A DNA stretch of 64,000 nt from Giardia intestinalis (taxonomy: Eukaryota), in NCBI GenBank assembly GCA_000002435.2, contig CM018790.1; one strand, written 5' to 3'. The notes beneath the pieces were generated by a model. That model had not been told where the DNA came from and made no database searches. It saw only the letters and a program-made list of their open reading frames with translations. A program made the translations under genes and the position numbers. Shown one piece after another: positions 4,767-5,840 of this stretch. The stretch's first letter is position 1; the number at the start of each line of letters is the position of its first letter.

Positions 4767-5840
4767 GCGCGGCCCGAGGCGGCGGGGGCGACGGGCGGAA
4801 CTTAAGCATATCAGTACGCCCCGGAGGAGAAACCAACCGGGATTCCCCGTAGCGGCGAGCGACGCGGGAGGAGCCCGCCCCGAAGGCGCGCTGTGGGGCG
4901 CAGGCGCAGGCCCGCCGCGAGGGGGCCCGAGGGCCCCGCCCGAGAGGGTGCAAGCCCCGTACGGCGGCCGCCGGGCCTGCGCGGCGAGTAGCGCTGCTTG
5001 AGCGTGCAGCGCGAAGGGAGGCGCGGCCCTTCCAAGGCTAAATACGCCCCGGGACCGATAGCGGACCAAGTAGCGCGAGCGAACGGTGAAAAGGACGCCC
5101 TGCGGCCGCTCAAAAGACCTGAACCCGGCCGGCCGCCGGCCCGCCGGCCCCGTCTCGAAACACGGACCGAGGAGCCACGCGCCGCGGCGAGCCCGAGGGA
5201 GCCCCCGCGGCGGAGCGAGCGCGAGACGCCCCGGGCCCGCCATGCCCCTGCGGGCGTGCGCGGGCCGAGCCGCGGCGCGTGGGCCCGAAAGGCGGTGATC
5301 TATGCCCGGCGAGGGCGAGGCCGGGCGAAAGCCTGGTGGAGGCCCGCCGCGGTGCTGACGCGCAGATCGCTCGTCGGAGCCGGGCATGGGGGCGAAAGAC
5401 TCATCGAACCGCCTGGTAGCTGGTTGCCTCCGAAATGTCTCCCAGGACAGCCGCCGCCCCGCAGTTGCGGCCCGTAGAGCGCTGGCCGGCGGGAGCGGGG
5501 GGCCTGCCCCTCGCCCGCCCCCCAAACTCCGAAGGGCCGCGCCGCCCCGCCGCTGGCCTGGGCGGGGCGGGCGAATGCGGGCGGCGCGTGGGCCCCTCCT
5601 GGTAAGCAGGACGGGCGAGGCGGGACGATCCGGACGCCGGGCCAGGGTGCGCCGCCGGGGCCCGCGGAACGGCGTCGGCCGGTCCCGACAGCTGGAAGGT
5701 GGCCCCAGAAGTCGGCATCCTCCAGGGAGTGTGTAACAACCCACCAGCCGAATCGGCCGGCCCGGAAAATGGAGCGCGCCGGAGCCCCGGACCCGCGCCC
5801 GGCCGCCGCGCGCGGCGGGTAGGAGGCCGCAGAGGCCCCC
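4767..5840 (+). rRNA. LSU rRNA: LSU rRNA, 5' portion (about 1.07 kb), truncated at the inverted-repeat junction
   Basis: GGAACTTAAGCATATCAGTACG...GGAGGAGAAACCAACCGGGATTCCCCGTAGCGGCGAGCGA at 4797-4860 is the conserved LSU 5' domain. Colinear with unit pos 1-278 on a second lap, then orientation flips at about 5840. Confidence 0.8.

Follow-up and report, generated by a model that had tools for sequence, protein, structure and literature searches.

The question raised by the first bases of this locus is whether the end of a Giardia intestinalis chromosome has physically turned back on itself or has only been written down in that way. The window, that is, the whole stretch of 64,000 nucleotides that was analysed, opens with rDNA in which two LSU genes converge on a single point and the sequence on one side of this point is the mirror image of the sequence on the other. 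A junction of this kind can be produced by a genuine rearrangement of the chromosome end as well as by several errors of sequencing and assembly, and the different origins leave partly different traces in the layout of the repeats, in the quality of their consensus and in independently assembled DNA.

Self-BLAST and Rfam comparisons indicate that Giardia-type rDNA, with about 75% G+C, fills bases 1..16282, and self-comparison gives a unit period of 5561-5562 bp. The first copy (copy A) is a plus-strand block of 1.05 units (1..5839; self-BLAST, Rfam) that comprises the 3′ part of an LSU gene (1..1767), a spacer followed by the SSU gene (3081..4532; Rfam), the 5.8S/ITS region between SSU and the LSU 5′ part and, from 4792 (Rfam), this LSU 5′ part itself, which is cut off at the inversion junction. 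Copy B is a complete unit on the minus strand (5838..11399) and the mirror of 1..5562. Its LSU 5′ part likewise stops at the junction, with the mirrored LSU being recognised by Rfam only as two fragments (5977..6113 and 6266..6813), and its SSU gene (6863..8314; Rfam) mirrors that of copy A. Both the mirrored SSU genes and the truncation of the two LSU genes had been described in an earlier note on this DNA, and both are borne out by the Rfam matches. Copy C, a second minus-strand unit arranged head-to-tail with copy B (11400..16282, SSU at 12428..13879; Rfam), is cut inside the LSU gene at unit coordinate 679, where the rDNA meets unique DNA (16282..16283).

The mirror symmetry of the arms is nearly perfect. 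Specifically, bases 1..5562 match the reverse complement of 11399..5838 with 99.80% identity over 5567 columns, with 1 mismatch and 9 gap openings (self-BLAST), and the innermost parts of the arms (5419-5562 and 5838-5981) show 100% complementarity across an intervening 275 nt (repeat search). The head-on junction with 5.56-kb arms around a 275-bp centre, as it had been proposed, is therefore present, and so is the overrun of the unit boundary by the plus-strand unit, as 5562..5839 repeats 1..278 at 100% identity (self-BLAST). The centre itself (5563..5837, plus strand) had been regarded as a unique stretch; instead, it is ordinary LSU sequence, the same as 2..276. The strand switch, which had been reported together with 2-3 bp of microhomology, is real and falls at 5838/5839, and the overlap amounts to exactly 2 bp (CC): homology to the plus arm continues through 5839, homology to the minus arm begins at 5838, and the two C bases at 5838..5839 can be assigned to either arm. 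The letters on the left and on the right of the junction are gcagaggcccc and caggccagcgg, and the junction 31-mer is GGCCGCAGAGGCCCCCAGGCCAGCGGCGGGG.

An inverted structure of this size is far beyond chance, and at first sight it is what a genuine fold-back inversion at a chromosome end of the sequenced culture, clonal or subclonal, would leave behind. In such an event the outer array would have broken, and a 3′ end at unit position 278 would have primed 277 nt back, on its own or on the sister strand. The product would be a head-to-head rDNA palindrome with a 275-bp spacer, of which the assembler collapsed the arms and ran briefly past the centre. The head-to-head junction, the short spacer, the 2-bp overlap and the absence of adapter at the junction all speak for an origin of this kind, which, weighed together with the evidence given below, we nevertheless consider unlikely. 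The overlap, in particular, is not beyond chance: 23% of random inverted joins within the unit show at least 2 bp of microhomology, and for this reason a 2-bp microhomology is uninformative.

Two features of the breakpoint sequences can be recorded here. The sequence opens at the minus-arm breakpoint, and this base marks the 5′ edge of GGGCGGGGCGGGCGAATGCGGG (positions 1..22 and 5560..5583), a G-run motif that could form a G-quadruplex. The plus-arm breakpoint is the centre of an 8-bp palindrome, CCCCGGGG. A hairpin formed by the 275-bp centre, through which the two breakpoints would be juxtaposed, was considered and rejected, as the centre has no folding advantage over shuffled sequence (z -1.06 as DNA, +1.6 as RNA).

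The position of the locus can be deduced from the neighbouring genes. In the record the rDNA appears to lie at the start of the chromosome, and its minus arm runs into chromosomal genes from 16283. The first of these encodes a NEK kinase with ankyrin repeats (16338..19754, minus strand; identical to KAE8301904.1), which is probably the first gene of the chromosome record, followed by a high-cysteine membrane protein (HCMP; 20547..21728, plus strand; identical to KAE8301905.1). All ten proteins extracted from between 16.3 and 63.7 kb are end-to-end identical to proteins of WB clone C6, from KAE8301904.1 (the NEK kinase) to KAE8301915.1 (midasin), on the 1,539,535-bp chromosome. On this 1.54-Mb chromosome the accessions start with KAE8301904 and continue up to KAE8302556 at least; by KAE8302561 the following chromosome has begun, and KAE83012xx belongs to the smaller, 1,485,438-bp chromosome. 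By these accession ranges the NEK protein heads, or comes close to heading, the list of about 653 proteins of the 1.54-Mb chromosome, which places the rDNA at the record start. Accordingly, we infer that the record of the 1.54-Mb chromosome opens with the window, or else that the window is the first contig to follow a gap. None of the NEK, HCMP and junction ORFs had an exact match on record, in an index that does not include the source assembly.

The WB-C6 reference (GCA_000002435.2) derives from PacBio RS II reads with a read N50 of 12.7 kb and was built with HGAP, manual overlap merging, PBJelly and repeated Quiver (PMC7000408). An MDA chimera (assembly g12a2, PMC12216428; phi29 makes inverted chimeras) was rejected as a source of the junction, as the identical proteins indicate the WB-C6 PacBio assembly, which was made from unamplified DNA. 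With a small probability the same proteins could come from a different assembly of sub-assemblage AI, and all candidates of this kind were likewise built from noisy long reads. A further observation concerns the cap-methyltransferase gene at 22700..23950 (KAE8301906.1), which has a paralogue of at least 90% identity, KAE8303363.1, on the 1.97-Mb chromosome and which lies on contigs shorter than 2.3 kb in short-read assemblies. The paralogue suggests that a subtelomeric segment has been duplicated between chromosomes.

In Giardia, a "telomere gene unit" layout has been described that consists of a cysteine-rich protein gene, a kinase/ankyrin gene and then rDNA transcribed outward, and that ends with a truncated rDNA unit joined to (TAGGG)n (PMC10999387). 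The gene order of the window (HCMP, NEK/ankyrin, rDNA outward) is that of this layout. The boundary between rDNA and unique DNA lies 55 bp downstream of the NEK stop codon, and the k-mer spanning it is CTGACCCCGGAGTCCTGCTGCGTGGCGGGGCTCTGATG. Three independent short-read contigs stop exactly 30 nt (k-1) beyond coordinate 679, and a contig of the assemblage E strain P15 with a NEK homologue (L011:14131-14162) stops 32 nt into the rDNA, at the same unit coordinate 679. Judged from these contigs, the boundary at 16282/16283 is real and, in all likelihood, old; it appears to have been kept between assemblage A (WB) and assemblage E (P15), that is, to be old and fixed. Accordingly, the minus-strand copies are the expected ones, and the plus-strand block 1..5839 is the anomaly. 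Under a fold-back the outer array would be transcribed toward the centromere, unlike the rDNA-to-telomere layout just described (PMC10999387). TAGGG telomere repeats were searched for in the window and none were found.

A set of 17 independent Giardia rDNA contigs allows both the junction and the copies to be compared with other DNA preparations. These contigs were found through an antisense rDNA ORF recorded by gene callers, and they come from Logan assemblies (SRR12825854, SRR10662857, SRR3596245, SRR1957169 and others) and from one ENA assembly; 10 of them carry the exact rDNA ORF of the window. All 17 cross unit coordinates 5561->1->278 head-to-tail, and none ends near the branch points that the junction would be expected to create at k=31 (about 1, 30, 249, 278 and 5533). 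As a positive control, L018, L020 and L028 stop at coordinate 708, with L020 being a whole unit that is broken only at 679-708. In other words, neither breakpoint gives rise to a branch in the independent contigs, three of which do reveal the real boundary, and this counts against a fold-back. This is a weak negative, as the contigs represent other DNA preparations and pruned de Bruijn graphs, which a single-copy, subclonal or low-coverage junction could escape, and as the control boundary may recur at several chromosome ends. Two wider scans found no match: the junction 31-mer and a left-flank 26-mer in JGI metagenome contigs, which are without any Giardia rDNA, and the junction-spanning ORF (99 aa) among 5.8 billion proteins, where its normal halves are likewise unmatched, which makes this search uninformative.

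Some of the Logan contigs are of interest in a different respect. L022, L023 and L025 (SRR10063827/30/31) carry remnants of Illumina adapters at their starts, and 10-12 consecutive T abut the rDNA at unit coordinate ~1892, some 125 nt beyond the LSU 3′ end. Since the run accessions adjoin SRR10063826, an RNA-seq run cited in PMC7000408, these contigs are probably RNA-seq. Taken at face value, the T runs suggest polyadenylated rRNA-precursor or 3′-spacer transcripts that end at one site.

A three-way alignment of copies A, B and C shows that they differ by single bases only, mostly deletions, at a rate of about 1 error per kb (window 515, 2046-2047, 2318, 2517, 2759, 2834, 2915, 5982, 6065, 6110, 6154, 11719, 14127 and 14916). 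The differences are unevenly distributed. Specifically, copy B has five indel events of its own, and no more than 320 bp separates four of them from the junction (binomial P=5e-5); these form a cluster of four deletions, at 5982, 6065, 6110 and 6154, that remove five bases within 172 bp; one of them drops the A of the LSU string TAGCTGGTT, which we take to be a conserved LSU core element. At the four sites the undeleted state is found in 17/17 independent contigs and the copy B state in 0/17, and it is because of this contradiction that the deletions are read as consensus errors. The private states of copy A are also without support (at unit position 515, for example, 0/17 against 17/17), and more generally the private state of each copy has 0 matches in the independent contigs, with the alternative being matched at most sites (the exceptions are 2821/2834). 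The T/C difference between the arms (2517 and 8881) had been a candidate mark of two distinct units and was rejected as such, as the plus-arm state lacks independent support and is probably an error. On this comparison, the differences between the arms would all be assembly errors, and the worst stretch is the one beside the junction. A well-covered and uniquely placed junction should presumably be the best-polished part of the repeat, and an error-rich consensus beside it is not what a genuine fold-back would lead one to expect. The rDNA of the assembly looks unpolished in general, which may contribute to its annotated "12 pseudo 28S" genes.

The same alignment offers something to the opposite side. 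Copies A and B share an A at unit 2568 (window 2568/8830), for which copy C (14394) and four independent contigs have G, and they share GGG at unit 2656 (window 2656/8742), for which copy C (14305) and two contigs have GGGG. The shared states may reflect a minor variant of the rDNA that really exists and marks these units, or else a systematic error common to both copies, and they could equally well indicate a copy, both strands of a single unit, or units that lie next to each other. Two rare states that are common to both arms and missing from copy C and from the independent contigs would be expected of a fold-back copy, and with every difference between A and B put down to error, there may be no true divergence between the arms, which speaks for a fold-back. 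They also bear on a more drastic rearrangement. As rDNA arrays face their own telomeres, and as most Giardia chromosome ends bear rDNA, the fusion of two rDNA-capped ends, or the capture of a broken end, would give precisely this head-to-head orientation. However, a fusion would make a dicentric chromosome, and the plus-strand array should then be long and pass into another chromosome instead of stopping after 1.05 units, in phase with the breakpoint; moreover, the rare states common to copies A and B suggest that both belong to the same array. We regard such a fusion as the least credible origin of the junction. By the same token, a generic collapsed rDNA contig is less likely to have been the donor of the plus-strand block, since it would not be expected to share rare states with copy B.

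The arrangement becomes regular when the rDNA is rejoined in the opposite orientation. That is, the reverse complement of 5839..16282 followed by 1..5838 gives a head-to-tail array of 16,282 bp that is seamless and needs neither the addition nor the removal of a base, and the self-matches of this construct are on the same strand only and at the unit period. The cut between 5838 and 5839 is the only one that yields a seamless array, and it rebuilds the normal unit boundary exactly. In terms of coordinates, the first base of the sequence is the very rDNA base at which the minus-arm homology stops. The chance of such a coincidence is about 3/5,561, or a few in a thousand when other noticeable coincidences are allowed for. 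Neither a fold-back nor an inversion nor a chimeric read ties the end of the contig to the coordinate of the breakpoint, and under a fold-back the record must end at the breakpoint's rDNA base by chance, with a probability of about 1e-3. By contrast, an orientation error on a terminal block yields an in-phase flip by construction.

A true inversion would likewise flip a segment in place and keep every base at the visible junction. A two-break inversion of one 5.84-kb segment within a longer minus-strand array would look the same, provided that the sequence stops exactly at the second breakpoint. In that case the second junction would join the reverse complement of unit position 1 to unit position 279 and would read ...GCCCCGC followed by GGGGGCGAAGG on the strand complementary to the window. 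Since this junction would lie 5.8 kb away and be crossed by the same reads, the contig should continue through it, and nothing in a two-break inversion causes the sequence to stop there; the error cluster and the negative contigs weigh against it too. An event of this kind is accordingly very improbable.

The length of the inverted part is informative as well. The plus arm reaches the end of the sequence after 5.84 kb (self-BLAST), and its 1.05 units (5.8 kb) do not amount to half of the read N50 (12.7 kb). Had many reads carried the junction, the contig should have grown longer beyond it, which is a difficulty for a fold-back with only 5.8 kb beyond its centre. In favour of a fold-back, a giant palindrome would assemble as one arm plus a short fold-back.

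Taken together, these results favour the view that the junction is probably a long-read assembly artefact. The real chromosome end would then be an ordinary head-to-tail rDNA array transcribed toward the telomere, in the order unique DNA, truncated LSU, repeated units, and the outermost 5,838 bases of this array would have been written in the wrong orientation. The flip could have arisen from a hairpin-type or chimeric long read that was used to extend the contig end, or from a strand error when contigs were merged or stitched. For instance, a merge unaware of strand might have written one contig as it stood and then appended the other after an alignment on the opposite strand, from which a flip would result by construction. 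Whatever its form, a software step or a read-level step presumably lies behind the flip.

What has been observed is the geometry of the repeats, their terminal location, a poor consensus close to the junction and the fact that independent data contain no trace of it. An artefact is favoured because the block is terminal, flips seamlessly, extends only briefly past the junction and carries local errors, because the contigs show no branch, and because of the history of the assembly. With regard to this history, only 4/10 chromosome ends of the reference reach (TAGGG)n, with coverage at the ends being possibly lower according to the authors (PMC7000408), and a misassembly elsewhere in the WB-C6 reference was shown later (PMC11169602). 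The earlier note gave preference to a real fold-back or to palindromic amplification, and this opinion thus finds no support in the flip test, the short block, the absence of telomere repeats, the poor consensus, the 17 contigs or the microhomology.

Several points count against an artefact. The junction is seamless, offset by 275 bp and without adapter, which is not the classic missed-adapter palindrome, and the states shared by copies A and B would be expected of a fold-back copy too. HGAP pre-assembly normally splits single-read chimeras. Moreover, the authors of the reference found no misassemblies with BridgeMapper (PMC7000408), and the subtelomeric rDNA of Giardia rearranges often, with rDNA-bearing chromosome ends varying in size (PMC4985590). 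A PacBio missed-adapter palindrome, in particular, was rejected: the offset is 275 nt instead of zero, and no SMRTbell adapter was found at the junction with up to 3 mismatches allowed. The earlier judgement that such an artefact is less likely was therefore fair; however, an asymmetric centre rules out one kind of artefact and not every kind.

The two outcomes have different consequences. If the first 5.8 kb are mis-oriented, they mislead studies of rDNA copy number, 28S pseudogenes, subtelomeres and structural variants, and, as the sequence appears to be the reference used by the Giardia community, the mis-orientation should be flagged or corrected. There is a much smaller likelihood that the junction is a fold-back of the sister-chromatid-fusion type, present in the WB-C6 stock, perhaps in part of the culture, and caught by few long reads. 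A real junction would provide a concrete fold-back mechanism for the variable rDNA-bearing chromosome ends, and a true fold-back would show, for the first time at sequence level, how the long-known size instability of rDNA-bearing Giardia chromosomes comes about.

The locus can be set beside several known systems. Palindromic rDNA exists in nature, as in the extrachromosomal rDNA of Tetrahymena, Physarum and Dictyostelium and in the inverted rDNA units of the Entamoeba episome, and the presence of two inverted rDNA copies is what the window has in common with them. In those systems, however, complete transcription units surround a defined non-coding centre on a separate molecule. In the window both LSU genes are cut at the junction, a repeat search found no dedicated inverted repeats at the centre, and one arm is continuous with a 1.5-Mb chromosome instead of belonging to a separate molecule with telomeres at both ends. 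Fold-back inversions, as generated by breakage-fusion-bridge cycles, sister-chromatid fusion or microhomology-mediated template switching, are closer, in that one locus is joined to itself head-to-head, the spacer measures hundreds of bp and the microhomology 2 bp. The head-to-head orientation and the short spacer are thus shared, but the microhomology of the window does not exceed chance, the independent data, within their limited sensitivity, do not contain the junction, the mirrored arm is seen for 1.05 units, up to the end of the sequence, and the junction coincides with the end of the record.

The Giardia telomere gene unit (Upcroft and colleagues; PMC10999387) resembles the inner part of the locus in its cysteine-rich gene, its kinase/ankyrin gene, its truncated unit and its outward head-to-tail units. 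It differs in that it ends with a truncated unit and (TAGGG)n, whereas the window ends in an inverted block without telomere repeats.

Finally, assembly itself provides a precedent. The classic missed-adapter artefact is a perfect palindrome with zero spacer, sometimes with adapter remnants, and the 275-bp offset and the missing adapter set the window apart from it. In noisy long-read assemblies of the PacBio CLR/HGAP kind, and with PBJelly and contig merging, inverted "hairpin" ends and misjoins occur, and these resemble the window in their site at the end of a sequence, in an inverted part shorter than a read, in a poor consensus and in the fact that a flip restores the structure. Within this group, an orientation error at the level of merging or layout, or else a non-standard chimeric molecule, is what the exact in-phase flip suggests.
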